In this document: positions 1 through 17,988 of the stretch, piece by piece
How the letters are laid out: each line of letters begins with the position of its first letter
Position numbering within the stretch: position 1 is the first letter of the stretch
Assembly: GCA_964643065.1 (NCBI GenBank)
Contig: CAZXPD010000004.1
Location: forward strand, 5,098-69,097
Length of the DNA stretch: 64,000 nt
From: an uncultured Gammaproteobacteria bacterium
GTDB lineage: Bacteria > Cyanobacteriota > Vampirovibrionia > Gastranaerophilales > CAZEDP01
Direction: 5' to 3'
The notes under the pieces: generated by a model
What the model saw: only the letters and a program-made list of their open reading frames with translations
Told to the model about the DNA's origin: nothing
The model's database searches: none
Made by a program: the position numbers and the translations under genes

Positions 1-155
1 TTTAAGAATTAGTAATATTAAAAACTTTTTCTGACAATTAAGAGCGTTAAATATTCACAAAAGCGAAATGCAGCATTGTGAAGAGCATATCGATTAATTA
101 ATAAAAGAAACCGATATCCAAATAGTTTAAAATTACAAGATTATCTAATTCTCAG

Positions 156-209
156 CCCCAATAGATAGCGTAAATAAACCCCAATAGCCGATTTAAATAA
201 CCCGCTTAC
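156..209. repeat. Shared 3' junction of toxin/immunity arrays (partner copy 10513..10566)
   Basis: Contains an exact 26-bp match, ccccaatagatagcgtaaataaaccc. Similarity continues through cccgcttac into the stop-codon region of the last immunity gene in both loci. Confidence 0.7.
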
Positions 210-511
210 TTCAAATTATACTTACTAGCCAATACATCAAGAACGCTTTTCGTTCTTTTTCTTAACTCATTTTCATCAATAAGACTTGGATGATCTCTTA
301 TTTCAGGATCAGGCTCATAATATGCAATACCCATTCTAACTTGATTCAAATACTCATATACATTGTGATTGTAACCAAAAATCTTGTCCACATAATCTTC
401 AAGATAATCCTCATAGTTGATTACAAACTCATCTATATCAATTTTATTATTCAAAAAATCATTAGCCATTTTTATCAAAAATTGAATATGGTTCATTGCT
501 TCACTTGTCAT
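206..511 (-). CDS. Small cytoplasmic immunity-type protein, copy 3 of a tandem triplet
   Basis: Track ORF 206..529 starts at GTG. I prefer ATG 511 because all four paralogs align from M-T-(S/N)-(E/D)-A and AGGA lies about 8 nt upstream. Conserved blocks are NDFL(N/G)N(K/R)IDI(D/N)EF and RK(R/E)TK(S/R)VLD(V/I)LA(N/S)KYNL(R/K). The FLxxxIxxxEF block recalls colicin-D-immunity-like proteins (from memory, not searched). Confidence 0.6.
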   Translation of the reverse strand: MTSEAMNHIQFLIKMANDFLNNKIDIDEFVINYEDYLEDYVDKIFGYNHNVYEYLNQVRMGIAYYEPDPEIRDHPSLIDENELRKRTKSVLDVLASKYNLK

Positions 512-525
512 ATTTGGTATCCTAG

Positions 526-831
526 TCACCTGAGATTATACTTATTAGCCAATACATCAAGAACCCTTTTCGTTTCCTTTCTCACTCCATCCTCATCAAG
601 CAAACATGGCAAATCTCGAGCTTCAGGAATTGATTCATAGTACTCAACACCCATATATATATGATCAAGATATTCATAAACTACCTTATTGTATTCTAAA
701 ATTTCTTTTGAGTGATTTTCAAAATAATCTTGATATTCAATATCAAATTCATTTATATCAATTCTATTATTCAAAAAATCATTAGCGATGTTTATTAAAA
801 ATTTTATATGATTCATTGCGTCACTTGTCAT
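526..831 (-). CDS. Small cytoplasmic immunity-type protein, copy 2 of a tandem triplet
   Basis: Paralog of 206..511 and 846..1151 with the same length and conserved blocks. Separated from each neighbour by 14 nt. Confidence 0.6.
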   Translation of the reverse strand: MTSDAMNHIKFLINIANDFLNNRIDINEFDIEYQDYFENHSKEILEYNKVVYEYLDHIYMGVEYYESIPEARDLPCLLDEDGVRKETKRVLDVLANKYNLR

Positions 832-845
832 ATTTGGTATCCTAG

Positions 846-1151
846 TCACCTGAGATTATATTTATTAGCCAATACATCAAGGACACTTTTAGTCCTCTTC
901 CTCACGCCGTCTTCATCAAGAAAGTACGGGCGATCCCTAGCCTCGGGAATAGATTCATAATTTGCAATTCCCATTCTTATCTGCGCAAGAAATTCATATA
1001 TTTCTTTACTATAATTGTGGATAACTTCTGTATAATCTACAAAATAATTCTCAAACTCAATACAAAATTCATCTATATCAATTTTATTACCCAGAAAATC
1101 ATTCGACATATTTATTAAATAATGTATGTGCTTTATTGCTTCATTTGTCAT
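846..1151 (-). CDS. Small cytoplasmic immunity-type protein, copy 1, directly downstream of orphan toxin module 1163..1846
   Basis: ATG 1151 lies 11 nt after the stop of 1163..1846, with GAGGA upstream. DNA 855..1151 matches 10572..10868 with 2 mismatches in 297 bp by manual alignment. Confidence 0.65.
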   Translation of the reverse strand: MTNEAIKHIHYLINMSNDFLGNKIDIDEFCIEFENYFVDYTEVIHNYSKEIYEFLAQIRMGIANYESIPEARDRPYFLDEDGVRKRTKSVLDVLANKYNLR

Positions 1152-1162
1152 ATTTATTTTCC

Positions 1163-1846
1163 TCATTTCTTCAAAATCCATTGCAATTTTATCTTTTTTG
1201 TGTTGATTGCATTAACAATCTCACCTGTATATCTATCAATAATTACAGCCACATTATCAGCATAACGGACATAATTATTTTCAATAGGATCATAATATAA
1301 ATCACCCTTTTTTAAAACTTCAAGAATTTTTTCTGTCGAACTGATTTTACCCTGATTAATACGTTGCACAATTCTTGACACTGCATGACGATTTACCAAA
1401 TAACCGTTATTTTTCAAAGTATAATATGTTCTATAAAGTTTTTCTTTGTAAAGAGACGGATTTGAAGGTTTACCTTTGTATACTTTGGGCATTTGAGCAA
1501 CTCTTTCTTCTATAAATTTTATTATTGCTTTTTCCGAGAGCCTCTCATATACGTTTCGGATTGATGGAGTTCTAGCCAAAGCCCCTTGTCCCATTTTGCC
1601 AATAACAGGTAGAGCTTTCGCAATAGCCTGTTCTTCAATACTTGGAACTCCGGCAAAACTTGCGGAATAAAGTCCGTAGTTTATTACATCGTTCACAGTT
1701 GCTTCTCGTGATTGCTGTGTTCCGGTTTTCCAATCATAAGAAAGCGGTCTAAATCCTTTTAATCCGGCATTATTTGAAGATTGAGCATTCCCGCCGCCAC
1801 CGCCATAATTATTAACGCCCTCCTCAAACTGTCCATTCTCAGCCAT
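1163..1846 (-). CDS. Orphan toxin C-terminal module (possible BECR/DUF4258-like RNase fold)
   Basis: The N-terminal MAENGQFEEGVNNYGGGGGNA matches the Gly hinge of 3382..5082. The DNA handle 1784..1849 equals 4129..4194 with 2 mismatches in 66 bp. The C-terminal pattern NRHAVSRIVQR...ILEVLKKG...VAVIIDRYTGEIVNAI resembles the HAxxRxxxR(8-12 aa)I..vL..G...vVv....g.IiT layout of DUF4258/RelE-like toxins (from memory). Confidence 0.55.
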   Translation of the reverse strand: MAENGQFEEGVNNYGGGGGNAQSSNNAGLKGFRPLSYDWKTGTQQSREATVNDVINYGLYSASFAGVPSIEEQAIAKALPVIGKMGQGALARTPSIRNVYERLSEKAIIKFIEERVAQMPKVYKGKPSNPSLYKEKLYRTYYTLKNNGYLVNRHAVSRIVQRINQGKISSTEKILEVLKKGDLYYDPIENNYVRYADNVAVIIDRYTGEIVNAINTKKIKLQWILKK

Positions 1847-1849
1847 ATT
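1784..1849. repeat. 66-bp recombination handle (partner 4129..4194) encoding the Gly hinge
   Basis: Manual alignment gives 64 of 66 identical bases. The flanks diverge completely on the C-terminal-coding side. Confidence 0.75.
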
Positions 1850-1895
1850 TTCAAATACGCTCTTTTTTAGTTGTAGAATTTCTTATTTAATTGCA

Positions 1896-2420
1896 TCAAA
1901 AAGCTATTTTAATCGACACAAGGAGCATAACGGTATAAAAAACAGGAATCAAAAATAATGTTATTAAGGATTTTTTGTATTGCATGACATACAATTGATA
2001 CAAGCCAACTAAAAGCATCAAACTTGTAAAATATAGAAACCAACTGAAAAAATAACTTGTAACAATCCAATCATCAGTAAACCCTCTTGCCGTGATATTT
2101 ATAACTCTTCTATATAAGAAATCAGAAAGCAATAACAAGAAAAGCACTATAGACGTTGAGATGGCAGGTATTTTCCAGCTATTAATTATTTGTCTAACTT
2201 TTTCTTTAAACTTTATATTTCCAGTGTATTTATACATTACAAAAATTAAAATATAAAAAAGACCAACTTCAGTAAACACATTATTGAAAAACTTGCTTAA
2301 AATGGTGTTGTTTTGAGTATCGCTAAGAAGGAAGAATACAAAGAATGATAAGTTGTAAAGCAAAATAAACAATATTTGCGGAAAACACAAATTATTCAAT
2401 TTATCACTCATTTTAATCAT
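1896..2420 (-). CDS. Multi-pass membrane protein, candidate immunity partner of module 2420..2779
   Basis: 174 aa with about 5 hydrophobic segments. Its start ATG shares one base with the TAA of the upstream ORF (TAATG coupling). Confidence 0.5.
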   Translation of the reverse strand: MIKMSDKLNNLCFPQILFILLYNLSFFVFFLLSDTQNNTILSKFFNNVFTEVGLFYILIFVMYKYTGNIKFKEKVRQIINSWKIPAISTSIVLFLLLLSDFLYRRVINITARGFTDDWIVTSYFFSWFLYFTSLMLLVGLYQLYVMQYKKSLITLFLIPVFYTVMLLVSIKIAF

Positions 2421-2779
2421 TACCTGTTCTTAGTTATCTTATTCAGCTCCGATTTATCTACTTTTATATCTATAAGGATGTAATAATTCTTTATTTCTTT
2501 GAGTAACTGTAGAAAAAATGCTAAATTGTTTGTTGTTGTAAATATGGGATCAGCTTTGTATCTCTGTATTTTTTCTAATTTAAAATCATACTTGTCATAA
2601 ATAATAGCAGAAAAATTGCCATTTTTGTCAATGTGCGGATATAGAACTGTAGCATCATGAATGCTTCCAAACCAATCCCTATCTTTGTTTTTATCAAATG
2701 TAATTGAATTTCCATAATAATTGCTTAGGAAATGATGTTTTTGAAGCCATTCAGGAACATCATTAGTAAAAGTGTACAT
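2420..2779 (-). CDS. Stand-alone or truncated copy of the DxYDF C-terminal domain (orphan fragment)
   Basis: NSITFDK...GSIHDATVLYPHIDKNGNFSAIIYDKYDF...KNYYILIDI aligns with the last ~115 aa of 14138..15796, 12512..13336 and 3382..5082. It lacks the upstream (S/P)DC segment that the other three have. Confidence 0.5.
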   Translation of the reverse strand: MYTFTNDVPEWLQKHHFLSNYYGNSITFDKNKDRDWFGSIHDATVLYPHIDKNGNFSAIIYDKYDFKLEKIQRYKADPIFTTTNNLAFFLQLLKEIKNYYILIDIKVDKSELNKITKNR

Positions 2780-2788
2780 CCAAAACTC

Positions 2789-3367
2789 TTAGCCATACAA
2801 GAGATCGAGTCCCAAATACATATCAAGACAAAACAATACTAAAGTTAAAAGTAAAAGTAAAATTGCTTTGCCGAATTTTTTTTTATATAGCTGATAGAAA
2901 CTGGCAAGTAGCATCAATTCAAAAAAATAGAATGTCCAAATACCACTAATGTTTAAAAGATCACTTTGCACTAAAAATATTTCATTTGGAGATTTATTTA
3001 ACATAAAGCGGGATTTTTCGTTATATGCTAAGTAAAAACATAGAACTTCATATAACACAAGCAAGGTAGTCGGTTGCCACCAAACGTTAAAAAATCTCAT
3101 TATTATATTTTTAACGTGTTCTTTATCTGTAAATTTATAAATCAGCCAAATAAAGAGCCCCGAAAGAACCAATCCGACTCCCAATAATTCAATATCCAAA
3201 TCCATTTTATTAAATCTGTTAAACCAAAGATTATCCACTAAAAGACTGTCAACTAAAACTAAAAATTCCGATGAGACATAAGGAATAACAAAAAATATGG
3301 CAAACAACTCAAGATTTAAATATTTTTTGAAGAATTTAAACATTCTCATTTTATAGCATCTAAGCAA
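2789..3367 (-). CDS. Multi-pass membrane protein, candidate immunity partner of 3382..5082
   Basis: 192 aa with 4-5 hydrophobic segments, starting 14 nt after the toxin stop. Paralog of 10910..11488, with near-identical ends and two divergent patches. Confidence 0.55.
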   Translation of the reverse strand: MLRCYKMRMFKFFKKYLNLELFAIFFVIPYVSSEFLVLVDSLLVDNLWFNRFNKMDLDIELLGVGLVLSGLFIWLIYKFTDKEHVKNIIMRFFNVWWQPTTLLVLYEVLCFYLAYNEKSRFMLNKSPNEIFLVQSDLLNISGIWTFYFFELMLLASFYQLYKKKFGKAILLLLLTLVLFCLDMYLGLDLLYG

Positions 3368-3381
3368 TCCTTTGCCAATAT

Positions 3382-5082
3382 TTACTCTAGAATTTCTATA
3401 ATAAATATATAATTTTCTAACAAAGCAAAATTCTGAAGATAATAGGCAATATTATTAATCGCATTAGTTCTAGTTTTGTAAAAATCTTTAAATAGATACT
3501 TTGACACGTCTAATTTATGAAAATCATAAATATCAGAAATCACAACAGAATAATGACCTTTGCTATTCAATTTCACGTTATTTACTGTTACTTTACCAAG
3601 ACTCAGATGTAAATCCTGAGTTTTGTCAAATGAAATTGAATTAGGTGCCGAACCCGTTTTGAGTTTAGCAAGGAATTCCCTAAACTCGACTGACTGTTTT
3701 ACAGCTCGTGAAATTCTACTGTTTGGAGAATATTGCAAAACCTTTAATCTTTTGATATTGCCATTTTTGTCCCAAGTATCTATTGTTTGATCAAGCAATT
3801 TGCAGTCAGGAGTGCTAGACAAATCCTCAAGTTTGTTGATTGAATGTTTCATAAATTCGTATGTCAATGGTCTATAATTATTTTCTATATTGAATTTATA
3901 ATTAACTGCATTAAGCTTAGCTTTGATCTGAGCGTTGGTATTTTCTGTTATATTGGAGTTTGAATTTATCTCCTCATTGTACGGTCGCACATTTGGTTTT
4001 ATATTATCAAAATATGTCTGTTTATAAGAGGGCATACTTGCTATATTTTGATAAGGATCGGCAATATAAGGTTTTTCAGTTGCATATCCCTGTAAAGGGT
4101 TGCTATTGTTTCGACTTTCAGCCTGATTAGCATTCCCGCCGCCACCGCCATAATTATTAACACCCTCCTCAAACTGTTCATTCTCAGCCATATTCTCATA
4201 ACTGTTTATTTTGGCCATATTTTGCTGATACGATTCTTTTTTAGCCGTATATTTAGACCAAAGTTTTTTATGAACAGATTGATTATTATTTGTGGCTATT
4301 TCATTTTCAAGCTTGTCAAGATTAGTCTTTTGTTTAGACAGCGATACTTTAGCTTTATCTATTGCATTTTTCAGATTTCCTTTTGAAGCATCTAAATGAT
4401 GCGAATAGTTTGACACAGCCCCGGATGATTGAACTCCGCCCTCGTACTGTCCATTTTGTCCACCTGATTTTTGAGAAGTAAGTTTTTTAATGGAACTCAT
4501 CAGTTGCATGATTTGCTCTATCTTTTTCAAATCATTATTAACTTCCTCATCGACAGGGTCAGGCGCCGGACTGGGTTCAGGTTCTGGAGTAGGCTCGGGT
4601 TCCGGTTTAGGCTGAGGTTCTCCCTGCCCATCCGGTGGCAGCTTTCCATTATCAGGCGATTTTGGAAACTCGACTATTATCACTTTGCCCTTTAAGACTT
4701 TACCCTCAGGATTATTAGGGTCGGGATTAGGAGGGTTTTGATTTTGGTCGGAGTTAGGATCATTGTCAGGATTAGGATTTCCGTCTTCATCCGGTGACAT
4801 CCCCTGATAATCCCCATTTGATTGTCTGATTGGAGCAGACCTGTAATGTTCTCTGACATCAGTCCCGTCATCTTTTGTATAGGCGCTTACGTGAACAACT
4901 CCACAGCTTTCTTTTAAATCGCTTTCAGATGGTATTCCGATTACACCCAGTTGATAATCAATAGCTTTCTCATTAGCCGCAAATTCAGCCCTCGGCATTT
5001 TCGCGATTTCCTCTCTTGTGAATATTTTATTTGAATTATTTAATTTCGGGTTTGCATACCCCGAATAATTTCTTTTATCCAT
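3382..5082 (-). CDS. Modular polymorphic-toxin-like protein A (conserved N-domain, PE-rich linker, helical region, Gly hinge, DxYDF-family C-terminal domain)
   Basis: Start moved to ATG 5082 (the track uses TTG 5088). The N-terminal ~85 aa are about 85-90 percent identical to 14138..15796, including VHVSAYTKDDGT(D/N)VREHYRSAP. The linker is PQPKPEPEPTPEPEPSPAPDP and the hinge is NNYGGGGGN. No signal peptide was seen. Confidence 0.7.
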   Translation of the reverse strand: MDKRNYSGYANPKLNNSNKIFTREEIAKMPRAEFAANEKAIDYQLGVIGIPSESDLKESCGVVHVSAYTKDDGTDVREHYRSAPIRQSNGDYQGMSPDEDGNPNPDNDPNSDQNQNPPNPDPNNPEGKVLKGKVIIVEFPKSPDNGKLPPDGQGEPQPKPEPEPTPEPEPSPAPDPVDEEVNNDLKKIEQIMQLMSSIKKLTSQKSGGQNGQYEGGVQSSGAVSNYSHHLDASKGNLKNAIDKAKVSLSKQKTNLDKLENEIATNNNQSVHKKLWSKYTAKKESYQQNMAKINSYENMAENEQFEEGVNNYGGGGGNANQAESRNNSNPLQGYATEKPYIADPYQNIASMPSYKQTYFDNIKPNVRPYNEEINSNSNITENTNAQIKAKLNAVNYKFNIENNYRPLTYEFMKHSINKLEDLSSTPDCKLLDQTIDTWDKNGNIKRLKVLQYSPNSRISRAVKQSVEFREFLAKLKTGSAPNSISFDKTQDLHLSLGKVTVNNVKLNSKGHYSVVISDIYDFHKLDVSKYLFKDFYKTRTNAINNIAYYLQNFALLENYIFIIEILE

Positions 5083-5109
5083 GATCAACTCAATTCCTAT
5101 TATTTCTTG

Positions 5110-5829
5110 TTAAACATCCGTTCTGAAAAATTCTTCTATCATTGCTGAATTACAATCATTTCCTTTCTCAAACACAATCCTTCCTTCGGCGTCTCCGCCA
5201 TAGCCGTCCTGTCTTTGCATTTCAAGCAGATATTCAAGGAATTTTTCTCTTGTATATTTATATTTTTCGTCAGGTTTATAATTTTGCCTGTAAAGAGACG
5301 CAGTTCCCCACTCAATTACTTTTATGAACTTCTCGGGAATAAGAGGGACATCCGTTTCATCTGCGAGGTTCTCTTTTTCTTCTGTTTTATCTGCATTGAA
5401 TGCACAGTTTTGTGTCAAAAATTTTATTTGAACGGAATAAGAACTCTCCGGTGTCGGATCAAGTATTAATTTCCCGCCGAAAATCGAATATCTTAAGGGT
5501 TTACCGCTTCCTTCGGAAAGTTTATCGAGATCGCTGTGTTTTACAAAATAAAGCGGCAGAAGAGCTTCTTCAATTCTGACTCCGTCTTTCAAGATACTGC
5601 TTAATTCTACACTTTGCGAAATATCATACTCTTTTTGTTCAGCTGTTGTTTGGAAAGTATATTTTCTTTCCCTGAAAGAAAAAGGAAATCTCAAACATAC
5701 TTCGCCCAGTGTGTCTTTAATGTACTGTTTAATTTCAGGATAGGGCGAATTATCATCGGCAAAATTAACCGGCGGCTCCTCATGAACCAGCACACAAACA
5801 TTTTTCAATATATCGTAAAAATTACTCAT
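5110..5829 (-). CDS. Phage virion structural protein (possible head-tail adaptor)
   Basis: 239 aa, co-oriented and downstream of the capsid module. The assignment rests on position and size only. Confidence 0.35.
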   Translation of the reverse strand: MSNFYDILKNVCVLVHEEPPVNFADDNSPYPEIKQYIKDTLGEVCLRFPFSFRERKYTFQTTAEQKEYDISQSVELSSILKDGVRIEEALLPLYFVKHSDLDKLSEGSGKPLRYSIFGGKLILDPTPESSYSVQIKFLTQNCAFNADKTEEKENLADETDVPLIPEKFIKVIEWGTASLYRQNYKPDEKYKYTREKFLEYLLEMQRQDGYGGDAEGRIVFEKGNDCNSAMIEEFFRTDV

Positions 5830-5962
5830 TATAATTTCCTTTCAACAGTTGTTATTCATATTTTGTGAATTATAGATTTGTTCTTTGTTATTTTGAATGT
5901 TTATTTACCTTAAATATTAATTTTGCTAAGATTAACGTAATTTCTAATCAAATTATTCTTAA

Positions 5963-6682
5963 ATGAAAAAAATATTTTTAACTTTATTTATAATTTTTAT
6001 TTACGGCAATTTTGCTTTGTCTCAAGAGCTAAATAATAGTTATTTACAAGCAGGCAATGATTTCTATAACAGCGGAAAGTACGATTCAGCCATAAAATCA
6101 TATAAAAAGGCTTTAAAAAAAGATAATAATAATTTCAAAATATTTTATGACTTAGGGTTGGCATATACTAAAAAAGGGATGATAAAACAAGCTGTTTTAA
6201 GTTACCAAAAAGCTATCGAAATGAACCCTTCTGATGATTTAACATACAATAATCTTGGTTCTTTGTATTTCAGAAAAAAGAATTTTAATAAAGCAATAGA
6301 TAGTTACAAAAAGGCTATTGAGATAAATCCTTCATTAAATATGGCGGTTGAAAATTTGGCTAATACATATTTTGAAATAAAGTCGATTGAATTAGCTTTC
6401 GATAATTTTAAAAAATTACCGGATTCTTATTCAATGGCTTCTTGGTCGCTCAATAAGCTTTCAGCTATTTACATTATCAAAGGTGATTACACATCTGCTA
6501 TCAGCATTTATAAAAAAATGATTGAACGTGAACCTAATTCCGAAATAAATTATTTCAATTTGGCTACTATTTTTGAAATAGTTGGCTTACAAGACTTAGC
6601 CGTTCAAAATTACCAAAAAGCTCTTGAAATCAATCCTCATTATATCCAGGCAAGTGAACAGCTAATAAAAATCAGAAATTGA
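5963..6682 (+). CDS. Secreted TPR-repeat protein
   Basis: N-terminal signal-like segment MKKIFLTLFIIFIYGNFALS, followed by repeated 34-aa units with A..Y.KA(L/I)(E/K).(N/D)P. Confidence 0.85.
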   Translation: MKKIFLTLFIIFIYGNFALSQELNNSYLQAGNDFYNSGKYDSAIKSYKKALKKDNNNFKIFYDLGLAYTKKGMIKQAVLSYQKAIEMNPSDDLTYNNLGSLYFRKKNFNKAIDSYKKAIEINPSLNMAVENLANTYFEIKSIELAFDNFKKLPDSYSMASWSLNKLSAIYIIKGDYTSAISIYKKMIEREPNSEINYFNLATIFEIVGLQDLAVQNYQKALEINPHYIQASEQLIKIRN

Positions 6683-7509: not shown

Positions 7510-8352
7510 CTATGATATAGTGCAAATTAATTTTGCCAGTGCATTGGGCACAACTGTTTTTGCTCCGTATACATAAAGCCCTCTTACGGCTGTGTCGAAA
7601 GAATCCTGAAGCCTGATTGATTCAACTTCAACAACCTGAGAGGCAAAGGTAACGGCATTGTTTGTTCCGGCAAGCACATAATATTTTCCTGCCGTAGCAT
7701 CGAAGTTAGTGCATACCAAAACGTCCAAACCGGCAATCTTTCCGATAGAACCTTCTCTCAAGGTATTATCGCCGGATTGAGTGGCGTGGATGAATTCCGG
7801 AGCCTGTATTAAAAGAGCTTCAATATCAGGATTAATGACAATCCAGGGTTTTTGACCTTTTGTGATAGCGTTAGCCTTTTTAAGAGCTTTTGCCATAGCT
7901 ACAAAATTCGAATAAATATTGTCTTTTGTCAGTTCAATCGGCGTTCCTTCTGAGCCTACGACATTTTCACTCGGAACATCGGCATGTTTTGCGAGTAAAA
8001 AACCGTCTTTAGCGAGGTCAATAGCAACACGGGCTCTTTCAAGATAACCGCTCATGATGTTGATATTTGACTGAGCTTTGGAAACATCGTCAACCTTGAA
8101 TGCAAAGTATTTTTTCTGGTCAATTAACAATGTTTGTAAGGGCGAAGTCAAATCATCATAAGTGATTGAACCGGCATATGTTTTAACGGTAACATTGCCG
8201 AAAGAACGGATGTATACCGTGTCGCCGGAATTTTTTATGTCCCCTTCAAAATCCCTGTTGATGCACTGCATCATAACGCCGGATTTGTCAAGAAGTGTGG
8301 TCAATTTTTTCGACCAAATTTCCGGGACAAAATTTGTTAAGTCATTAGCCAT
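7510..8352 (-). CDS. Major capsid protein (HK97 fold, P22-coat-like small type)
   Basis: 280 aa directly downstream of the scaffold-like ORF. The N-terminal FVPEIWSKK...NRDFEGDIK..GDTV pattern is typical of this capsid family (from memory). Confidence 0.7.
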   Translation of the reverse strand: MANDLTNFVPEIWSKKLTTLLDKSGVMMQCINRDFEGDIKNSGDTVYIRSFGNVTVKTYAGSITYDDLTSPLQTLLIDQKKYFAFKVDDVSKAQSNINIMSGYLERARVAIDLAKDGFLLAKHADVPSENVVGSEGTPIELTKDNIYSNFVAMAKALKKANAITKGQKPWIVINPDIEALLIQAPEFIHATQSGDNTLREGSIGKIAGLDVLVCTNFDATAGKYYVLAGTNNAVTFASQVVEVESIRLQDSFDTAVRGLYVYGAKTVVPNALAKLICTIS

Positions 8353-8497: not shown

Positions 8498-9211
8498 CTA
8501 CTTTATCAATCCTTTTGCCATTTGATCAAAAATCACTTTTTCATATTTTGAAAAAGTTTCTGTATCCATCGCAGCTATTTCTGCTCTGGTAAATGCCCTT
8601 GCGGTATTTGATGAAGGTACACCGCAGTTAACGGAAGACTGAAGTCTTGATTTTGCGTTGTTATTTTCGGCTTTCATCTTCAATGCCGCATTATATCCTG
8701 CTTTATAAATCGATGAAATATACTCAACCGCATCTTCAAAGCCCTGTTCTTTCAGACTTTCATTTTGATTCATATCCATCTGTAAATATGCTTCAATTGC
8801 CTGCTTAACTTCGGGAACAGCATATAACTCCTGATATTTTGTCTGAACGTTTCTCAGGACGGACTGGTTTTCAGTCTGAACGGCAGATAAATTTTTCAGC
8901 TTGTTATCAAGCCATTGATTAGCGTATGCTTCTCCTTTATTTTTCAACAGATAATCGAAATGAGCCTGAAGATTCTGAGGATTCAGCTCTTTTTCGCTCA
9001 TTTCAAAAATCGCATCTTCATATTTTTGCCTTAATTTTCTTTCTTCTTCAAGCTGAGATAATGAATTCTCGGTTTCTTCGGCAATTTTAGGAATTGAACT
9101 TGATTCGCCGTTATTAAAGCTGTTTTGAACTATTGGCTGCGAATCTTCATTTTCATTCTGAACCGGGTTTAGACTTAGATTTTCTGATGAGGTGAAATTT
9201 TCGTTTTCCAT
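8498..9211 (-). CDS. Scaffolding-like protein
   Basis: 237 aa, acidic and helix-prone, immediately upstream of the capsid gene. Confidence 0.5.
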   Translation of the reverse strand: MENENFTSSENLSLNPVQNENEDSQPIVQNSFNNGESSSIPKIAEETENSLSQLEEERKLRQKYEDAIFEMSEKELNPQNLQAHFDYLLKNKGEAYANQWLDNKLKNLSAVQTENQSVLRNVQTKYQELYAVPEVKQAIEAYLQMDMNQNESLKEQGFEDAVEYISSIYKAGYNAALKMKAENNNAKSRLQSSVNCGVPSSNTARAFTRAEIAAMDTETFSKYEKVIFDQMAKGLIK

Positions 9212-9696: not shown

Positions 9697-9802
9697 TTAT
9701 TTAGTTTTGTAAAATTTATCCCCTTTACTGTCAAAAAAATTTATTCACTGCTTTTATATTATTGTAAATTATTTATTTGTGTTCCAAAAGGAGAGTTGAA
9801 TT

Positions 9803-10045
9803 ATGCAAGTACAAAGCTTAGTCCCGTATGTTGAAAGGGTAATGGTCAGACCTGATCGAGCAAACTTCTTTACTGCTATAAATCTACTTAGTAAACCGGA
9901 TCGCATTTTCGAAGTTGTTAGCAGAAGAACGCAAACTTTTGCAGGTGGAAACAACTCAATAGATTTTATAACTCTTAAAGATACAGTTACGAACAGGTTG
10001 ATAAAAGACGTTTTTGCAGATGATGTTTTTAGTGTTTTAGCATAA
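9803..10045 (+). CDS. Hypothetical protein
   Basis: 80-aa ORF with aaaggagag upstream of the ATG. Confidence 0.45.
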   Translation: MQVQSLVPYVERVMVRPDRANFFTAINLLSKPDRIFEVVSRRTQTFAGGNNSIDFITLKDTVTNRLIKDVFADDVFSVLA

Positions 10046-10047
10046 AC

Positions 10048-10296
10048 TCACTCCCCAAAAACCTTATCAAGCTCCTCTCTGTAAAAAGAGACACGTTCTG
10101 CTTCGTTTTCAACGAATGAGAACACCTCTTTGATACCTGCAAGGTACGGGACAATATTTTCATTAGCGTTTAGAGAGATATTAGAGAGCATTTTATCTCT
10201 GAATATTTCTTTTAACATATTATAATTGCTGTCAATGTTCAGTTCTCTGAGCTTGACGGCAGTTTGATATTTAGCGTAAAGTTCCTGATAGTTCAT
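10048..10296 (-). CDS. Hypothetical protein
   Basis: 82-aa ORF convergent with 9803..10045. Confidence 0.4.
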   Translation of the reverse strand: MNYQELYAKYQTAVKLRELNIDSNYNMLKEIFRDKMLSNISLNANENIVPYLAGIKEVFSFVENEAERVSFYREELDKVFGE

Positions 10297-10348
10297 ATAT
10301 ATACCCCATAATTACTTTAAATCAGACAATATAAATGTATTGATAAGG

Positions 10349-10491
10349 TGCCGTCTCTTGAAACGGCATCGTAAGGTTTTAATCTAATTTCTATATTCTC
10401 GTGTCATTCTCAGCTCCATAGGGCGTGAGAATCTGCAAGCATTATGCGTATTCCCGTCACCACAAGGAGGGCTTTCAGCCCGACGTGGTGA
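10349..10491. repeat. Cluster of three short GC-rich hairpins (REP-like) just outside the locus B junction
   Basis: Hairpin 1 is tgccgt/acggca (10349..10368). Hairpin 2 is attctca/tgagaat (10406..10432). Hairpin 3 is tcaccac/gtggtga with an inner gggct/agccc stem (10457..10491). Confidence 0.45.
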
Positions 10492-10562: not shown

Positions 10563-10868
10563 TTACCTCAAATTATATTTATTAGCCAATATATCAAGGA
10601 CACTTTTAGTCCTCTTCCTCACCCCGTCTTCATCAAGAAAGTACGGGCGATCCCTAGCCTCGGGAATAGATTCATAATTTGCAATTCCCATTCTTATCTG
10701 CGCAAGAAATTCATATATTTCTTTACTATAATTGTGGATAACTTCTGTATAATCTACAAAATAATTCTCAAACTCAATACAAAATTCATCTATATCAATT
10801 TTATTACCCAGAAAATCATTCGACATATTTATTAAATAATGTATGTGCTTTATTGCTTCATTTGTCAT
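10563..10868 (-). CDS. Small cytoplasmic immunity-type protein, orphan copy with no adjacent toxin
   Basis: 101 aa, differing from 846..1151 at only two nucleotide positions. Homology stops exactly at the ATG. Confidence 0.65.
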   Translation of the reverse strand: MTNEAIKHIHYLINMSNDFLGNKIDIDEFCIEFENYFVDYTEVIHNYSKEIYEFLAQIRMGIANYESIPEARDRPYFLDEDGVRKRTKSVLDILANKYNLR

Positions 10869-10909
10869 TTAATGAAATTTCCTATTAAACTCGGCATGTG
10901 AAAAATACT

Positions 10910-11488
10910 TTACCCATATATAAGGTCAAATCCAAAATAAATATCAAGACAAAACAATACTAAAGTTAAAAATAAAAGTAAAATTGCTTTGCCGAATTGT
11001 TTTTTATATAGCTGATAGAAACTGGCAAGTAGGACCAATCCAAAAAAATAGAATGCCCAAAAAAAACCAAAGCCTAAAAGATTTCCTTGTTCTAGAAAAG
11101 CTTCATGCGAAGGTTTGCTTAGCATAAAACGGGATTTTTCGTTATATGCTAAGCAAAAATATAGGACTTCATACGATACAAGCAAGACAATTGGTTGCCA
11201 CCAAACGTTAAAAAATCTCCTTATTATATTTTTAACGTATTCTTTATCTGTAAATTTATAAATCAGCCAAATAAATAAACCGGAAAGAACTAATCCGACT
11301 CCCAGCAATTCAATATCCAAATCCATTCTATTAAATCTGTTAAACCATAGATTATCCTCTAAAAAAATGCCAAGCAAAGCTAAACATTCCAATAAGGCGT
11401 ATGGGATAACAAAAAATAGGGCAAACAACTCAAGATTTAAATATTTTTTGAAGAATTTAAACATTCTCATTTTATAGCATCTAAGCAA
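10910..11488 (-). CDS. Multi-pass membrane protein, orphan paralog of 2789..3367
   Basis: 192 aa. The upstream intergenic cctttgccaatatt is conserved with locus A, but no toxin C-terminus precedes it. Confidence 0.55.
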   Translation of the reverse strand: MLRCYKMRMFKFFKKYLNLELFALFFVIPYALLECLALLGIFLEDNLWFNRFNRMDLDIELLGVGLVLSGLFIWLIYKFTDKEYVKNIIRRFFNVWWQPIVLLVSYEVLYFCLAYNEKSRFMLSKPSHEAFLEQGNLLGFGFFWAFYFFGLVLLASFYQLYKKQFGKAILLLFLTLVLFCLDIYFGFDLIYG

Positions 11489-11622
11489 CCCTTTGCCAAT
11501 ATTATTTATTCCTGAATTATATACTGAATTATATTCAAATGCTTATAAAACCGAAAATGCATTAATAAAGTTGATAATTGTTTGCTATAAAATATGATTA
11601 GTTATTAGATTTTTAATAAATT

Positions 11623-12468
11623 ATGAATATTGGGAATTATAAAATTCAGTTGACTCGCTGGTTGATAAAACAACTCGCAAGCCCGTATTTGGCAATTTTT
11701 TTTATTATTACAATATCTGTCTTTTATCTGCAAATTAACGGTTGGGCAGTAAAAGATTATTATTTTGATCGAGAAAAGGCACAAATTGCGGTTGATAAAA
11801 GTTATGACGGGACATATAGCAATAATCTTATAAGAGAACTTGATTTGTTGACTAATAAGAAGTTCCTTCCCGTAAATCGGTCATATAATGCTTTAACGTT
11901 CTCTTTTATGTTATTATTACTGTTAATTATACTGAAAGTAAATTCTTACGAAGATTTTATAAAATTACCGGCTTTATCAAATAAAATAATTATATTTTCA
12001 TGGATTAATGTTTCTTATATCTTATTTTCTTATTTATTTATAGCTAAATTAATGAATGATATTGTTATTGAAGTTTTGCCCAGCACTGCTGACAGTTTAA
12101 GTATTCCTGAGTTATCAGCAGCCGTGTTTCTTTTTATTATAGCTATTCCCTATTATATTTTTACAAATCTATTTTTCTTTATTACATATAGAAAAACATA
12201 TAATATGAAAGTTGCTTTGAATAAATCTCTTCTTTTTTATAAACCGTTATTATCTTGGAAATATGGTTTTATAACTTTATTTCATATTTTTTCTATAATC
12301 TTATGTTTATTTTTGCTGATTGATTGGTTGCAGGGAAAATTTTATCTCTCTTTTTCCATCCAAATTATCCTGTCATTTATATGGATTTACCTTAATATAT
12401 CAGCTCTATCTGTACTTGCGAATAAATTTATTTCAAGTACAGAAAAACAAAACAACACCGTAATTTAA
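11623..12468 (+). CDS. Multi-pass membrane protein of unknown function
   Basis: 281 aa with about 7 hydrophobic segments. It is the only plus-strand gene inside locus B, convergent with 12512..13336. Confidence 0.5.
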   Translation: MNIGNYKIQLTRWLIKQLASPYLAIFFIITISVFYLQINGWAVKDYYFDREKAQIAVDKSYDGTYSNNLIRELDLLTNKKFLPVNRSYNALTFSFMLLLLLIILKVNSYEDFIKLPALSNKIIIFSWINVSYILFSYLFIAKLMNDIVIEVLPSTADSLSIPELSAAVFLFIIAIPYYIFTNLFFFITYRKTYNMKVALNKSLLFYKPLLSWKYGFITLFHIFSIILCLFLLIDWLQGKFYLSFSIQIILSFIWIYLNISALSVLANKFISSTEKQNNTVI

Positions 12469-12511
12469 GATAACTTTTAAAAACAGCGTTGTTTTGCCTT
12501 TATATCAGATT

Positions 12512-13336
12512 TTACTTGTTATTCAATATTCTTGCTACTTGATACTTATCCAATTTGATATAAATAACTATAAAATAATTTTTTAGCAGACCTTTTTCTT
12601 GCAGATTGTACGCAGTTTTAACTAAAATGTTTCCTTCATTTGCAAAATTATAAACATCAATAACAATGGCATTAAAATTTCCGGCTTTGTCCAAGTGAGC
12701 ATTTATAATATCGGCAGAATTAATACTGTTACGTAGATCTTGCTTGGATTTAAATGTTTTTGAGCCATTTATGAACTGTCCATTTATCAATTTGGTTTTA
12801 TTAGTTAGTATAAACTCTTTGATATCTTGAGAATGAGCTATCTTATCAGCAAGAGGGTGTTTTGAAAATAAAATAACACCGGGACAATCAGAATTACCAA
12901 GTTGTGCTTTTATCTTGGACTCCACCCAAGCACGTATTGAGGGATCGTGTATATTATTTATACTGCCATAATAGAGACTATTTAAGGCATTTCCAATAGG
13001 ATAATTTATATGTGTTGAATGCAAAAATAATTTCGAAGATTCGGGGACATTAAAAACATTTCCGTATTTTTCGCCAACGTGAGCGCCAAAATCCATATTA
13101 TTTTTTAGCATTTGGTCGAACCAATTTGGTGAATTGTTCTTACTAGAATTTTGGCTATGGATAGTCTGACTAATAACCTTACTTGAAGATTGAGCAGGTA
13201 GACCACCACCACTTCCCTGATTTCCGTACCCATCCGCAATCCCCTGATAATCCTCATTTTGGAAGAGACTTTCAATATGATTCAGAGCTTGAGAATGTTT
13301 ATTCAGAGCTTGTTTCTTGGCATGTATTTTTTGCAT
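12512..13336 (-). CDS. Orphan C-terminal module of the DxYDF family (displaced 3' part of a 14138-type gene)
   Basis: It starts MQKIHAKKQALNKHSQALNHIESLFQNEDYQGIADGYGNQGSGG, identical to residues ~269-312 of 14138..15796. It then diverges into its own C-terminus with SDCPG ... LDKAGNFNAIVIDVYNF ... KNYFIVIYI. Confidence 0.6.
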   Translation of the reverse strand: MQKIHAKKQALNKHSQALNHIESLFQNEDYQGIADGYGNQGSGGGLPAQSSSKVISQTIHSQNSSKNNSPNWFDQMLKNNMDFGAHVGEKYGNVFNVPESSKLFLHSTHINYPIGNALNSLYYGSINNIHDPSIRAWVESKIKAQLGNSDCPGVILFSKHPLADKIAHSQDIKEFILTNKTKLINGQFINGSKTFKSKQDLRNSINSADIINAHLDKAGNFNAIVIDVYNFANEGNILVKTAYNLQEKGLLKNYFIVIYIKLDKYQVARILNNK

Positions 13337-13518
13337 CAGTTGACCGTATTTAGACTGATTTGTCGTATTTACGGCTTCATCAACAATTTTCTTCAGTTCA
13401 TTCCCTTGTTTTTGCAGAGATGATTTAGATTTGTTAATTGCTCTCTTTAAATTCGTCTTGGATAATTCAATGCTATTAGAATACCTGCTGATTGCTCCTT
13501 AATATTTTGAACTGACAG
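13205..13518. repeat. 314-bp recombination handle (partner 14861..15174)
   Basis: Manual alignment gives 6 mismatches in 314 bp, and the first ~200 bp are identical. Homology extends 182 bp upstream of the orphan ATG, where TCA (Ser214 in the full-length gene, 15155..15157) is TAA (13499..13501). Confidence 0.85.
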
Positions 13519-13558
13519 ATTTATTTCCGTCTATTTCATTTTCAAGTTTATTAATCCA

Positions 13559-14131
13559 CTACATTTTCTTTAATAACATTAAATAGCTTTTGATTTTCCT
13601 AAAAAGAAATAAAAATATAAAAATTGCCAAATAGCTTCCTGTTAATCCTCCAAAAACTAACCTCCAAAATAGATCTGAATCTGAATAAAAGTAAGAGTGT
13701 TCTACAAAAGTTCGTGCAAAATATGAAGATATAATTGCAAAAATATCAACTATTATAGCAAACAATACTATCCTTAGTTGGAGGTTACTATTTTGAAAAA
13801 TAAGTCTAATCCATGTTATAATTTCCACGTTTTTACTCTGTCTTAGAATGATAAAGATTGTTAATGGTAGTAATAAATATTTTATAATTATTAAGAGAGG
13901 CATTAAATATACCGCCAACATCAATATAACAGAAATGCCCTCTATTTGTGCTTTATATAGCCAATCAATATATGAATACCCCATATATGCAAGATATGTT
14001 GCTATGAGTGGAAATATATTTGTTAAAATAATTAAATTTGCAAAAACAAATAAAATAGTCTCCCATTTTAATAGATTTTTAACTATAATTTGCCAGTTCA
14101 ATTTTTCTATAATTTTATCAATCATGAACAA
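13559..14131 (-). CDS. Multi-pass membrane protein, candidate immunity partner of 14138..15796
   Basis: 190 aa with about 5 hydrophobic segments, starting 6 nt after the toxin stop. Confidence 0.55.
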   Translation of the reverse strand: MFMIDKIIEKLNWQIIVKNLLKWETILFVFANLIILTNIFPLIATYLAYMGYSYIDWLYKAQIEGISVILMLAVYLMPLLIIIKYLLLPLTIFIILRQSKNVEIITWIRLIFQNSNLQLRIVLFAIIVDIFAIISSYFARTFVEHSYFYSDSDLFWRLVFGGLTGSYLAIFIFLFLFRKIKSYLMLLKKM

Positions 14132-14137
14132 TCAAGA

Positions 14138-15796
14138 TTATCTAGCTCTATTTATTTTAACAAAAACTATGACAAAATAATTTTCGATATTCTTATTTTC
14201 TTGCCAAGTTTCCATTTGGTTATTAATTTGAGCTTTAATGCTGTATTGATTTTTCATTTTACTAAAATCATATATATCAAAAATTAATGCATTTAAATTT
14301 CCGTTTTTATCAATCCATGCTTTATAAATTGTGGCATTATGCAAAGAATTTGCCAAATCTGTATCACGATAGAAGAAAACTGGTTTGAGAGTTATTGAAC
14401 CTTTTTTAAATAAATCATCTTTGTTTCTATATATTACATCTCTAAAGTCATTGGAATTTTGTATTTTTTTTGCGACATTCGATTCTGAGGTATAAATTAC
14501 TCCCTTACAATCTGATTTGTGTAATATATCACGGATTCGTTCTTGTAGATAAGTTCGTAATTGTTTGTCATTGATTTGTCGAATACTTTGAATCAACTGG
14601 GCATTTGGATTATTTAAAACTTCTCTAAGCCAAGTTAGCGAGTTATGGGCAAATTCTGTTGCAATGGGTACATAAGGTACATTTTTAAGTTTTCTAGCAA
14701 TATCAAATTTCATTCTATCCCAAAATTCTGAAGGTTCATGTAAGTCGGAACTTTTGAGAGTTTTATTTAAATCTGAATAAATATTTTGATTTCTGGCATT
14801 ATTATAATCTGATTTTTTATGAGTCTTACTGGCTGAGTTATTTTCTCCAACATTGGGTACACCACCACTTCCCTGATTTCCGTACCCATCCGCAATCCCC
14901 TGATAATCCTCATTTTGGAAGAGACTTTCAATATGATTCAGAGCTTGAGAATGTTTATTCAGAGCTTGTTTCTTGGCATGTATTTTTTGCATCAGTTGAC
15001 CGTATTTAGACTGATTTGTCGTATTTACGGCTTCATCAACAATTTTCTTCAGTTCATTTCCTTGTTTTTGCAGAGATGCTTTAGATTTGTTAATTGCTCT
15101 CTTTAAATTCGTCTTGGATAATTCAATGTTATTAGAATACCTGTTTATTGCTCCTGAATATTTTGAACTGACAGGCAATGACAGATTTTCTTTATTAGCT
15201 TTACTCGAAGCAATTTCTTTCAGACTGTTCATACTTTGTACTATTTGTTTTGCAAGGTCAGCTATTTCTTTAAGTTCGGAAATATTTTGTTCCTCATCTT
15301 CATTCGACGGTTGAGGATCAGGCTCTGGAGGTGGCTCAGGTTGCGGATCAGGTAAAGGCTCTTCCTGATCGTCCGGCGGTACAGGCAGCATTACCCCGTC
15401 GTTATTTTTATATACGTTTTTTTCAACACTTCCTTTATAAACACGCGGAATTTTTTCTTCACTGTTATTGTCCTGAGTATTATTATCATTATTTTCGTTC
15501 TCATCCCCCTCAACTCCCATCCCCCAACCATTTGACACTCTGTTGGGAGCAGAGCGGTAATGCTCTCTGACATTCGTTCCGTCATCTTTTGTATAAGCGC
15601 TTACGTGAACAACTCCACTGCTTTCCTGCAAATCGCTTTCAGAGGGTATTCCAATTACACCCAGTTGATAATCAATAGCTTTTTCATTAGCCGCAAATTC
15701 AGCCCTTGGCATTTTTGCGACTTCCTCTCTTGTGAATATTTTATTTGAATTATTCAATTTTGGATTTATAAATCCTGCAAAATTTTTTCTATCCAC
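14138..15796 (-). CDS. Modular polymorphic-toxin-like protein B (same architecture as 3382..5082)
   Basis: GTG start. The N-terminal 85 aa are shared with protein A. The linker is PDDQEEPLPDPQPEPPPEPDPQP and the hinge is DGYGNQGSGG. The C-terminus carries SDCKG ... IDKNGNLNALIFDIYDF ... ENYFVIVFV. It is the first minus-strand gene after the portal. Confidence 0.7.
   Translation of the reverse strand: MDRKNFAGFINPKLNNSNKIFTREEVAKMPRAEFAANEKAIDYQLGVIGIPSESDLQESSGVVHVSAYTKDDGTNVREHYRSAPNRVSNGWGMGVEGDENENNDNNTQDNNSEEKIPRVYKGSVEKNVYKNNDGVMLPVPPDDQEEPLPDPQPEPPPEPDPQPSNEDEEQNISELKEIADLAKQIVQSMNSLKEIASSKANKENLSLPVSSKYSGAINRYSNNIELSKTNLKRAINKSKASLQKQGNELKKIVDEAVNTTNQSKYGQLMQKIHAKKQALNKHSQALNHIESLFQNEDYQGIADGYGNQGSGGVPNVGENNSASKTHKKSDYNNARNQNIYSDLNKTLKSSDLHEPSEFWDRMKFDIARKLKNVPYVPIATEFAHNSLTWLREVLNNPNAQLIQSIRQINDKQLRTYLQERIRDILHKSDCKGVIYTSESNVAKKIQNSNDFRDVIYRNKDDLFKKGSITLKPVFFYRDTDLANSLHNATIYKAWIDKNGNLNALIFDIYDFSKMKNQYSIKAQINNQMETWQENKNIENYFVIVFVKINRAR
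14861..15174. repeat. 314-bp handle inside the full-length gene (partner 13205..13518)
   Basis: See 13205..13518. The offset between copies is 1656 bp. Confidence 0.85.
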
Positions 15797-15866: not shown

Positions 15867-16247
15867 ATGACAAACTATTTAGCGGTATTCATAGGCGGTG
15901 GGATAGGCTCTTTATTGAGATATTTAATTTCCTTGTATTTTATAAAACATATAACTAATTCGTTTCCCTATGCCACATTTACTGTAAACTTAATAGGCTG
16001 TCTTTTTATAGGCTTTATAATTTCCCTTTCAATGAACAAACCAGGCTTGTGCGGAACCAGCCTCCTTTTATTCCTTACGGTTGGAATTGCAGGAGGCTTT
16101 ACAACGTTCAGCACATTCAGCTACGAGACTTTCGCTCTTTTAAAGAACGGAGCTTTATCTGTAGCTGTTGTTTATGTTTTTCTGAGTTCATTGTTAGGCT
16201 TATTTGCGGTTTATATGGGTTCATTACTCGGGAAAGCATTCAACTGA
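15867..16247 (+). CDS. crcB: Fluoride ion channel CrcB/Fluc
   Basis: 126 aa with 4 TM segments and the motifs GGGIGSLLRY and GGFTTFSTFSYE. Confidence 0.9.
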   Translation: MTNYLAVFIGGGIGSLLRYLISLYFIKHITNSFPYATFTVNLIGCLFIGFIISLSMNKPGLCGTSLLLFLTVGIAGGFTTFSTFSYETFALLKNGALSVAVVYVFLSSLLGLFAVYMGSLLGKAFN

Positions 16248-17884: not shown

Positions 17885-17988
17885 TACAGTCTCCTTATGT
17901 AAACTTTTTATTAACAATTGAAATAAATTAGCAATTTTATATTTTTACGGATTTTAATTATTTAGAATTAAAAATTCGAGGAAAAATT

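Follow-up and report, generated by a model that had tools for sequence, protein, structure and literature searches.

A probable polymorphic toxin locus with hinge-exchangeable C-termini among the head genes of a prophage in a Gastranaerophilales-like bacterium

The window, a stretch of 64,000 nt of contig CAZXPD010000004.1 from a metagenome assembly, contains a gene region (206..5088) which we consider to be probably a polymorphic toxin locus among the clustered structural genes of a prophage; another of this kind would be located at 10563..15796. All genes of the first locus are on the minus strand. Its full-length toxin, gene A, would consist of a chassis joined via a Gly-rich hinge to an exchangeable C-terminal toxin, and the modules downstream of it would be stored and not delivered. 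One of these modules, a protein of 227 amino acids (aa) here called the orphan, is probably an RNase-type toxin that has been displaced from its chassis. Delivery of the full-length toxin would be by the phage particle. The elements of the locus are as follows (ORF, open reading frame).

3382..5082, minus strand: gene A, encoding a full-length toxin of 566 aa if counted from the ATG at 5082 (ORF open from TTG 5088)
4129..4198, minus strand: handle/hinge copy within gene A, encoding …NMAENEQFEEGVNNYGGGGGNA
3385..4128, minus strand: resident C-terminal toxin of gene A, membrane-immunity type, with D-x-Y-D-F motif, from family comparison
2789..3367, minus strand: candidate membrane immunity protein for the gene A toxin, 192 aa, hydrophobic, directly downstream of gene A
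2420..2779, minus strand: handle-less orphan fragment of a resident-type toxin, 119 aa, aligning with the final ~110 residues of the C-termini of genes A and B, including DKYDF
1896..2420, minus strand: candidate membrane immunity protein for fragment 2420..2779, 174 aa, by position and hydrophobic sequence
1784..1853, minus strand: 5′-terminal handle copy of the orphan gene, with 96% identity to 4129..4198, longest perfect run 33 nt (1784-1816)
1163..1846, minus strand: orphan toxin, 227 aa (handle residues 1-21, lineage-specific part 22-~120, then C-terminal toxin domain)
1175..1477, minus strand: predicted BECR-like toxin domain of the orphan, residues ~124-224, His154 invariant, Arg158 and Trp223 conserved
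846..1151, minus strand: candidate immunity gene 1, 101 aa from the family start at 1151 (the ORF can start at 1181), PF09204 below cut-off
526..849, minus strand: candidate immunity gene 2, PF09204 (Colicin_immun) 28.0 bits, cut-off 22
206..529, minus strand: candidate immunity gene 3, PF09204 28.8 bits, cut-off 22

Gene A is composed of an N-terminal module, a Pro/Asn-rich linker, an amphipathic helix, a coiled-coil region, the Gly hinge and the resident C-terminal toxin. The pair formed by fragment 2420..2779 and its immunity gene sits between the immunity gene of gene A and the orphan. No significant family was found in Pfam, PHROG or NCBIfam for gene A, its paralog gene B or the orphan. 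Few relatives of gene A were obtained in a protein search, with P0003, P0004 (gene B), P0005 and P0008 as chassis homologs.

Gene A and the orphan are linked by a repeat. A second copy of the 66-mer at 1784..1849 is found at 4129..4194, differing at 2 of 66 positions, exactly where an earlier note, made from the sequence alone, had placed it. There is no other copy in the window, and the number of chance matches expected from 100 dinucleotide-preserving shuffles of the window is 0.00. Upon ungapped extension this handle grows to 70 nt with 96% identity (1784-1853 versus 4129-4198, 3 of 70 positions differing). Both copies are read in frame on the minus strand and specify (N)MAEN(G/E)QFEEGVNNYGGGGGNA. 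Beyond GGGGGNA, alignments between the orphan and gene A are at noise level for DNA as well as for protein, in agreement with the common peptide followed by unrelated sequence that the earlier note described. On the other side, 5′ of the orphan ATG, the likeness to gene A is gone within ~4 nt.

The comparison with a related genome is the most informative. P0005, a protein of 518 aa encoded at locus L002 of the metagenome-assembled genome (MAG) GCA_964511035.1, has the same N-terminal region and coiled-coil as gene A, and its gene directly follows an SU10-like adaptor gene, which is the position of gene A as well. Past its own hinge (…YAEEGGGGNP), the C-terminus of P0005 is clearly homologous to the orphan, and downstream of the gene come two small immunity homologs, ordered as genes 1 and 2 of the window. 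When gene A and its relatives were compared in alignment blocks of 25 columns, the identity to P0005 reached noise at the hinge column: it is 76-96% in the first ~100 alignment columns and 27-64% ahead of the hinge, and past the hinge it is 5-30%, with most values below 15%. By this comparison one chassis carries two toxin classes, as the earlier note had proposed. Toxin diversity after the hinge of the long chassis stays at these two classes, as scans of metagenomes and viral sequences added only few loci.

The orphan itself is a mosaic with its junction at the hinge, since its handle matches gene A and its toxin part matches L002. The toxin part shows 80-100% DNA identity to the resident toxin of L002, whereas the handle has only 62-69% DNA identity to the L002 hinge region, compared with 96% to gene A of the same genome. 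P0005 differs from genes A and B in another respect: around residues 157-186 (L002, 7101..8657), a hydrophobic, transmembrane-like stretch (IPYLAIAIAIGALVLTAVKIAAAIAG) stands in place of the Pro-rich linker and the amphipathic helix. A comparable hydrophobic stretch is present in P0008, and this segment may be relevant to membrane passage during ejection.

The same design is found a second time in the window, at gene B, where the following elements were annotated.

14138..15796, minus strand: gene B (P0004), paralogous full-length toxin, 552 aa, hinge GYGNQGSGG
13559..14131, minus strand: candidate membrane immunity protein for gene B, by position and hydrophobic sequence, with a homolog in L003
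13204..13518, minus strand: handle of the gene B orphan, 315 nt, ~98% identical to 14860..15174, ending right after the GYGNQGSGG codons
12512..13336, minus strand: orphan of gene B, 274-aa ORF with resident-type toxin, from family alignment
10910..11488, minus strand: orphan copy of the gene A membrane immunity gene, 84% identical to 2789..3367, no toxin
10563..10868, minus strand: orphan copy of immunity gene 1, 99% identical, gene-sized, homology ending at the ORF borders, no adjoining toxin

The handles of the two orphans, which are independent of each other and 70 nt (gene A) and 315 nt (gene B) long, stop at the same alignment position. Together with the mosaic structure of the orphan, this agrees with the earlier proposal that the hinge is the module boundary. 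The gene B orphan handle has acquired a stop codon (TCA>TAA) near its 5′ end, so that read-through from upstream would not occur. No minus-strand ORF of at least 30 aa lies between the stop of the gene B orphan (12512) and 11623..12468, a plus-strand gene for a multi-pass membrane protein of 281 aa which converges on that orphan. The gap of ~410 bp between the portal gene and gene B holds a plus-strand gene for a CrcB fluoride channel (15867..16247, PF02537, E 4.5e-27) which overlaps the end of the portal ORF; crcB is found between the portal gene and gene B in L003 also (7547..7927).

The hinge is not a fixed motif. It reads NYGGGGGNA in gene A, GYGNQGSGG in gene B, EEGGGGNP in P0005 and GYGNQEKGKA in P0003, and is thus a variable low-complexity Gly run, seen in only four or five long-chassis proteins. 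By reading the sequence, neither VENN nor PxxxxDPxGL was found at the boundary …QFEEGVNNYGGGGGNA of gene A or …DYQGIADGYGNQGSGG of gene B. The earlier note had assigned the role of VENN to NYGGGGGN and GYGNQGSGG. The role as a boundary is retained, but by analogy with VENN the hinge would serve as a recombination boundary in the form of a variable linker rather than a conserved motif, and the conserved element of the family is the N-terminal module. Gene A additionally contains weak internal echoes of the sequence preceding the hinge, at 4432..4455 and 4531..4551 (79-81% over 21-24 nt), where …GQNGQYEGGVQSSG… resembles …NEQFEEGVNNYG….

We next consider what the orphan may be. An exhaustive HMMER search (E ≤ 1e-3) yielded 59 representatives at 50% clustering, and these match only residues ~124-224 of the orphan. 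In 57 of the 58 non-self matches the domain lies at the C-terminus or within ~15 residues of it, in proteins of 69-527 aa. Among 52 scanned relatives, nine carry Phage_Mu_F, three Phage_min_cap2 and one a YD-shell/Rhs domain; this distribution over carriers reads as the signature of a mobile polymorphic-toxin warhead. His154 is present in all 52 sequences and Arg158 in 42 of them, and Gly148 and Trp223 are strongly conserved. The family motif EHxLNRxxGR has diverged to RH(A/S)(V/I)(S/P)RI(V/A)QR in the orphan, P0005 and P0009. The relatives came to light through the search with gene A and through exhaustive HMMER. A word-index protein search with the orphan returned only the orphan itself and missed the clear relative P0005; with the N-module alignment it gave almost only short fragments and no full-length toxins. 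Its negative results must be read with care.

An AlphaFold (AF2) model built from the family alignment has a pLDDT (predicted local distance difference test) above 90 for residues 100-227, and the prediction is poor for residues 1-100. In topology, three helices precede a four-stranded sheet, and the invariant His is at the start of a helix. The best Foldseek matches in the PDB are CdiA-CT of E. coli NC101 (E 0.11, probability 0.91), the catalytic domain of colicin E5 (four entries) and ParE, all of which are BECR-fold proteins; the E-values of 0.1-0.8 do not reach 1e-3. Among the viral models of BFVD, a phage protein of 69 aa (E 1.2e-3, TM 0.80 to the target) and a DUF4258 protein of Microbacterium phage Honk (E 0.049) were matched. 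Colicin D is not within the top 50 PDB fold matches of the model, and Colicin_D is not among the 25 families most frequently matched by the 52 relatives. DUF4258/Ntox49 has been assigned to the colicin-like BECR group with a catalytic His (bioRxiv 10.64898/2026.08.28.747851). Most likely, the last ~100 residues of the orphan form a metal-independent RNase with the BECR/colicin-like fold, in which His154 would be catalytic. The earlier guess of an RNase-like, BECR or DUF4258 toxin thereby gains support, short of proof, from the model with its weak fold matches and from the 2 of 52 scanned relatives that match DUF4258 (best E 2.5e-4); the orphan itself lacks a DUF4258 match.

The three small genes 3′ of the orphan are tandem paralogs of ~101-107 aa which are 61-64% identical. 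Of the two genes that follow the L002 toxin, the first is 74% identical to gene 1 and the second 88% identical to gene 2, and gene 3 is closest to L002:1383-1688 (70%). PF09204-like genes are found 3′ of the RNase-type toxin in the window, in L002 and in L013. P0009, the closest toxin relative outside the lineage (57% identity), is followed by a protein of 98 aa which hhalign aligns to the immunity profile with 99.7% probability; for P0022, a more distant toxin relative, the neighbour of 96 aa is without clear similarity to that profile (probability 21%). A PDB sequence profile search with the immunity family gave chance-level matches only. PF09204 is associated with colicin-D-type tRNases (PMC4905994). 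Most likely, these colicin-D-immunity-like proteins block the orphan toxin by direct binding, as far as can be predicted from family membership and model.

The resident toxin differs in its neighbours, as multi-pass membrane proteins are found 3′ of it in every related locus. Thus, the distinction between two immunity types made in the earlier note applies: membrane proteins follow the resident type and small soluble proteins, two of three belonging to PF09204, follow the orphan. The resident family comprises the C-termini of gene A, gene B and both resident-type orphans (window segments 3385..4128, 14141..14860, 12515..13204 and 2423..2779) together with P0003, P0008 and Gastranaerophilales proteins. 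In its D-x-Y-D-F motif the first Asp is invariant, Tyr is present in 9 and the second Asp in 8 of 10 sequences. The structural model is of moderate confidence and its best fold match is the colicin-M-like PaeM (4g76; E 0.12, probability 0.18); a PDB sequence profile search with the family gave chance-level matches only. The match to PaeM and the membrane immunity proteins are hints that may point to a periplasmic or lipid II target. We did not adopt an assignment as colicin-M-like lipid II hydrolase, which the PaeM match and the D-x-Y-D-F motif would suggest, as the PaeM match is weak and the His-Arg part of the motif is absent.

The phage-borne nature of the locus, which is absent from the earlier reading, became evident from the surrounding genes.

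20230..21510, minus strand: large terminase (phrog_2, E 1.7e-35)
16211..17917, minus strand: portal protein, upstream of gene B (phrog_332, phrog_1216)
8498..9211, minus strand: scaffold-like protein, upstream of the capsid gene, no family match, C-terminus AFTRAEIAAMDTETFSKYEKVIFDQMAKGLIK
7510..8352, minus strand: major capsid protein (phrog_267, E 1.4e-52; tblastn matches to phage major head proteins)
5110..5829, minus strand: head-tail adaptor, directly upstream of gene A (PF24175 SU10_adaptor; PHROG tail-protein matches)

One of the tblastn matches of the capsid protein is annotated as P22 coat protein 5. From ~22 kb on, the window holds bacterial functions (trehalose-phosphate synthase, GH38 mannosidase, glycosyltransferases). 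The phage genes and the bacterial flank together place the toxin loci within a virion gene cluster that is embedded in a bacterial chromosome. Several other genes of this region were recorded: a plus-strand gene for a tetratricopeptide-repeat (TPR) protein with a signal-peptide-like start (5963..6682), located between the head genes and the adaptor gene; two XRE-type helix-turn-helix paralogs (18732..19055 and 19259..19591, 80% over 159 nt) between the portal and terminase genes; and, few kb past the prophage, an OLD-like TOPRIM protein (26179..27378, PF20469, E 3.7e-13) of a family linked to anti-phage defence.

A possible route into the particle is suggested by the N-terminal module (N-module) of ~85 aa, which was annotated on the minus strand as follows.

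4828..5082, minus strand: N-terminal module of gene A, ~85 aa, with two motifs, IFTREEIAKMPRAEFAANEKAIDYQLGVIGIP and VVHVSAYTKDDGTDVREHYRSAP

The consensus is IFTREEIxxMxxxEFxxNEKAIDYQLxxxGIP for motif 1 and VVxVxAYTKDDGTxVxxHYRSxP for motif 2, and 25 columns are invariant across 7 proteins. A further 43 N-module proteins were found, one of them from the MAG of "Cyanobacteria bacterium RUI128"; there is no match among 50,697 GenBank phage records. At least three types of C-terminal toxin occur on N-module proteins. Shorter toxins of the resident type (332-339 aa) begin with the module in Candidatus Gastranaerophilales genomes and are followed by membrane immunity genes, in one case (L007) with an orphan fragment after these. 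In metagenome locus L011 (6019..7068) it is joined to a papain-fold glutamine deamidase toxin (PF15644 Gln_amidase, 30.6 bits, cut-off 24.1), and this gene starts 10 bp past the portal gene. In viral contig L009 it heads a resident-type toxin, but it also occurs at the C-terminal end of a DUF6973 protein, and a part of it on a lipase-like (Mbeg1-like) protein (9737..10432 and 10824..11674, respectively). Judged by this distribution, the family-defining unit is the N-module and not the hinge, and the long chassis with coiled coil and hinge is a sub-type. A divergent XRE regulator is found upstream of short chromosomal N-module toxins in L005, L008 and L010.

A hidden Markov model (HMM) of motif 1, built only from toxin N-modules, finds the extreme C-termini of scaffold-like proteins that are encoded beside capsid genes. 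Among 1130 ORFs, the scores are 32.8 bits in L009, 26.0 bits in L002 and 18.9 bits (E 5e-5) for window ORF 8498..9211. In BLASTP, the C-terminus of the window protein matches motif 1 with 13 of 31 identities (E 0.001). Motif 2 is confined to toxins. The segment concerned is:

~8501..8600 of the window, minus strand: C-terminal segment of ~30 aa of the scaffold-like protein, …FTRAEIAAMDTETFSKYEKVIFDQMAKGLIK, motif-1 match; corresponding proteins at L002 3420..4133 and L009 4110..4823

In P22-like phages, the C-termini of scaffold proteins bind the coat protein. As the first ~30 residues of the N-module copy a scaffold C-terminus, we infer, in what is the weakest step of our explanation, that the N-module may load toxins into the procapsid, from which they would leave together with the DNA on infection. 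MuF is likewise considered a capsid-targeting domain (PMC11699363). More speculatively, and with the odds rather against it, the N-module could be a portable capsid-loading tag, its first ~30 residues (FTxEEIxxMxxxEFxxxEKxIxxQL) having been copied from the capsid-binding C-terminus of the scaffold. RNase-like, membrane-immunity-type, glutamine deamidase, DUF6973 and lipase-like proteins have been seen with the N-module or motif 1.

The arrangement of the locus can be explained by the following series of events. The RNase-type toxin would once have been resident in the window, as it still is in L002. Incoming cassettes of the membrane type would then have recombined at the handle and pushed the RNase-type toxin downstream. 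The handle of the orphan retains the final 21 codons of the chassis, and the two handle copies form direct repeats around an insert of 2,345 bp, which is the pattern expected of cassette entry at the handle. If these repeats recombined with each other, the insert would be lost and the orphan toxin would again be joined to the chassis, by which the weapon would be switched. The longest perfect run of the handle, 33 nt, is near the minimum length for RecA-dependent recombination in E. coli, so that back-switching seems plausible but rare. The toxin would most likely be delivered by the phage particle, as has been proposed for MuF toxins, and be ejected into attacked cells.

A general definition of polymorphic toxin systems is said to have been given by Zhang et al. 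in 2012. The window and its relatives show a conserved N-terminus with unrelated C-termini, candidate immunity genes downstream which co-vary with these, and a toxin domain that is found on several carriers. Among the closest parallels are the polymorphic toxins of MuF type that temperate phages encode (Jamet et al. 2017, PMC5576092; Apk2 and Bxa, PMC11699363). These share with the window a conserved N-terminal carrier, a variable C-terminal toxin, small downstream immunity genes of which there are sometimes several, and a location among head-morphogenesis genes, where gene B follows the portal and gene A the adaptor gene. The toxin domain of the orphan occurs on MuF proteins (9 of 52 relatives), and a glutamine deamidase toxin is known in both families (PMC11699363). 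In contrast, the carrier in the window consists of the ~85-aa module followed by linker, helix and coiled coil, and Phage_Mu_F (PF04233) was not matched by gene A, gene B or P0005 at E-values up to 1 or 0.1, nor was there a PHROG match. Also unlike MuF toxins, the window prophage has two loci, one of them after an adaptor gene, and orphan cassettes with homology handles; the MuF papers PMC5576092 and PMC11699363 contain no mention of orphan modules.

Orphan toxin/immunity cassettes are known from contact-dependent inhibition (CDI; CdiA-CT/CdiI), Rhs and MafB systems (Poole et al. 2011, as cited in PMC5576092). As far as that citation goes, silent modules downstream keep a short conserved stretch there which allows toxin exchange by recombination, as would be the case in the window; arrays of extra immunity genes are a further likeness. 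The boundary in the window differs from that of CDI and Rhs in being a variable Gly-rich linker after a loose N(E/N)(Q/D)(F/Y)(E/Q) motif, and the carrier is phage-linked rather than a substrate of type V or type VI secretion. With colicin D/ImmD and DUF4258/Ntox49, the orphan module shares candidate immunity proteins of PF09204 and, in the model, a helical N-part with a four-stranded sheet, but the orphan has no significant sequence match to Colicin_D, DUF4258, PBECR or the PDB. A parallel for the scaffold motif is provided by phage P22, where a helix-turn-helix of the scaffold binds the coat, and by SaPI1, the CpmB of which copies the C-terminus of the 80alpha scaffold. As in these cases, a short segment of the scaffold C-terminus is met again on other proteins of the phage group, and the window capsid is related to proteins annotated as P22-type coat; in contrast, the segment is found on toxins and enzymes, at either end, and its binding to the capsid is putative. 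With the MuF domain, VENN and PxxxxDPxGL all absent, the window locus matches the designs of CDI/Rhs/MafB and of MuF and is a member of neither.

Three other explanations have been weighed. The toxins might be secreted or lysis-released bacteriocins, with the N-module as export signal for an envelope pathway unrelated to the phage and with the prophage as a mere carrier. It is in favour of this that short N-module toxins of Gastranaerophilales lie outside phage structural clusters, beside an XRE regulator, and that the resident toxin has membrane immunity proteins as have periplasm-acting bacteriocins, with a weak structural match to one of these, PaeM. We nevertheless consider it unlikely, as the genes are found amid portal, adaptor, scaffold and capsid genes in the window, L002/L003, L009 and L011, twice directly after the portal gene, as motif 1 of the N-module recurs at the scaffold C-terminus, and as the toxin domain of the orphan is common to MuF and minor-capsid fusions. 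Somewhat less probable still is an independently expressed toxin-antitoxin or abortive-infection unit, formed by the orphan and its immunity genes and acting in the producing cell, for which the handle would be a mere leftover. The in-frame ATG of the orphan coincides with a Met of gene A, the stop codon of the orphan lies near the immunity start or overlaps with it, toxins of the BECR/RelE type are frequent in toxin-antitoxin systems (PMC11980606), and P0009 (204 aa) is also without recognisable carrier. However, the same toxin ends a full-length chassis in L002, and the domain is C-terminal on MuF, minor-capsid and Rhs carriers. The handle has been kept at 96% while the hinge region diverged to 62-69% between genomes, and the stop codon in the gene B orphan handle is typical of silent stored cassettes. 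There is no promoter-like signal above chance: a scan of 1..6000 for promoters and terminators gave no excess over shuffled sequence, a result that is uninformative on expression of the orphan.

That the tandem array is an assembly artefact, in which two strain alleles were joined through their common handle, is very improbable. The window does come from a metagenome assembly, and the orphan is known from only two contigs, possibly of one sample. Against this, the handle copies differ at 3 of 70 positions and have an extra pair of fragment and immunity gene between them; gene B shows the same design with a 315-nt handle that has its own mutations; L007 also has an orphan fragment after immunity genes; and the orphan immunity copies at 10563..11488 show that real duplication has occurred within the contig.

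The polymorphic toxin locus in a prophage is thus the explanation that we prefer, and several observations weigh against it or parts of it. The orphan protein is present on only two contigs, which may derive from the same sample, and it could be made without a chassis as it has its own in-frame ATG. Its subfamily departs from the consensus beside the His (RHAVSRIVQR versus EHxLNRxxGR). The Pfam models of DUF4258 (PF14076, tried to E 1), Colicin_D and PBECR do not match the orphan, and a PDB sequence profile search with its toxin family gave chance-level matches only. Immunity gene 1 has 16 bits for PF09204, which is under the Pfam cut-off of 22. As for delivery, several N-module toxins of Gastranaerophilales adjoin an XRE regulator without nearby phage genes, and such chromosomal toxins are a poor fit to simple capsid loading in cis; in L009, the scaffold-like gene is located after and not before the capsid gene. 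Toxicity, RNase activity, immunity, packaging and switching are predictions from sequence and model.

In summary, the overall architecture of the locus is familiar. Its novel features are the carrier module, the connection of this module with the scaffold protein, and the occurrence of orphan arrays among the head genes of a prophage. Phage-borne polymorphic toxins have so far been known mainly as MuF fusions. The locus would represent a second, unrelated carrier, found in prophages of poorly studied, uncultured Gastranaerophilales-like bacteria, and it would bring the full feature set of CDI and Rhs systems, namely exchangeable toxins, stored orphans with handles and surplus immunity genes, into a virion gene cluster. 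The toxin domain of the orphan represents a widespread family that is covered by no Pfam model. The short motif common to toxins and scaffold protein provides a concrete idea of how cargo may enter the capsid. If it is indeed a portable tag, phages of this group would take up into their heads any enzyme that bears it at one end or the other and would inject that enzyme into target cells, and tagged toxins from other sites on Gastranaerophilales chromosomes would be carried along in the particles of a resident prophage. The phage head would then be a general secretion device with swappable warheads, and the tag, if confirmed, could be used for loading proteins into phage particles.

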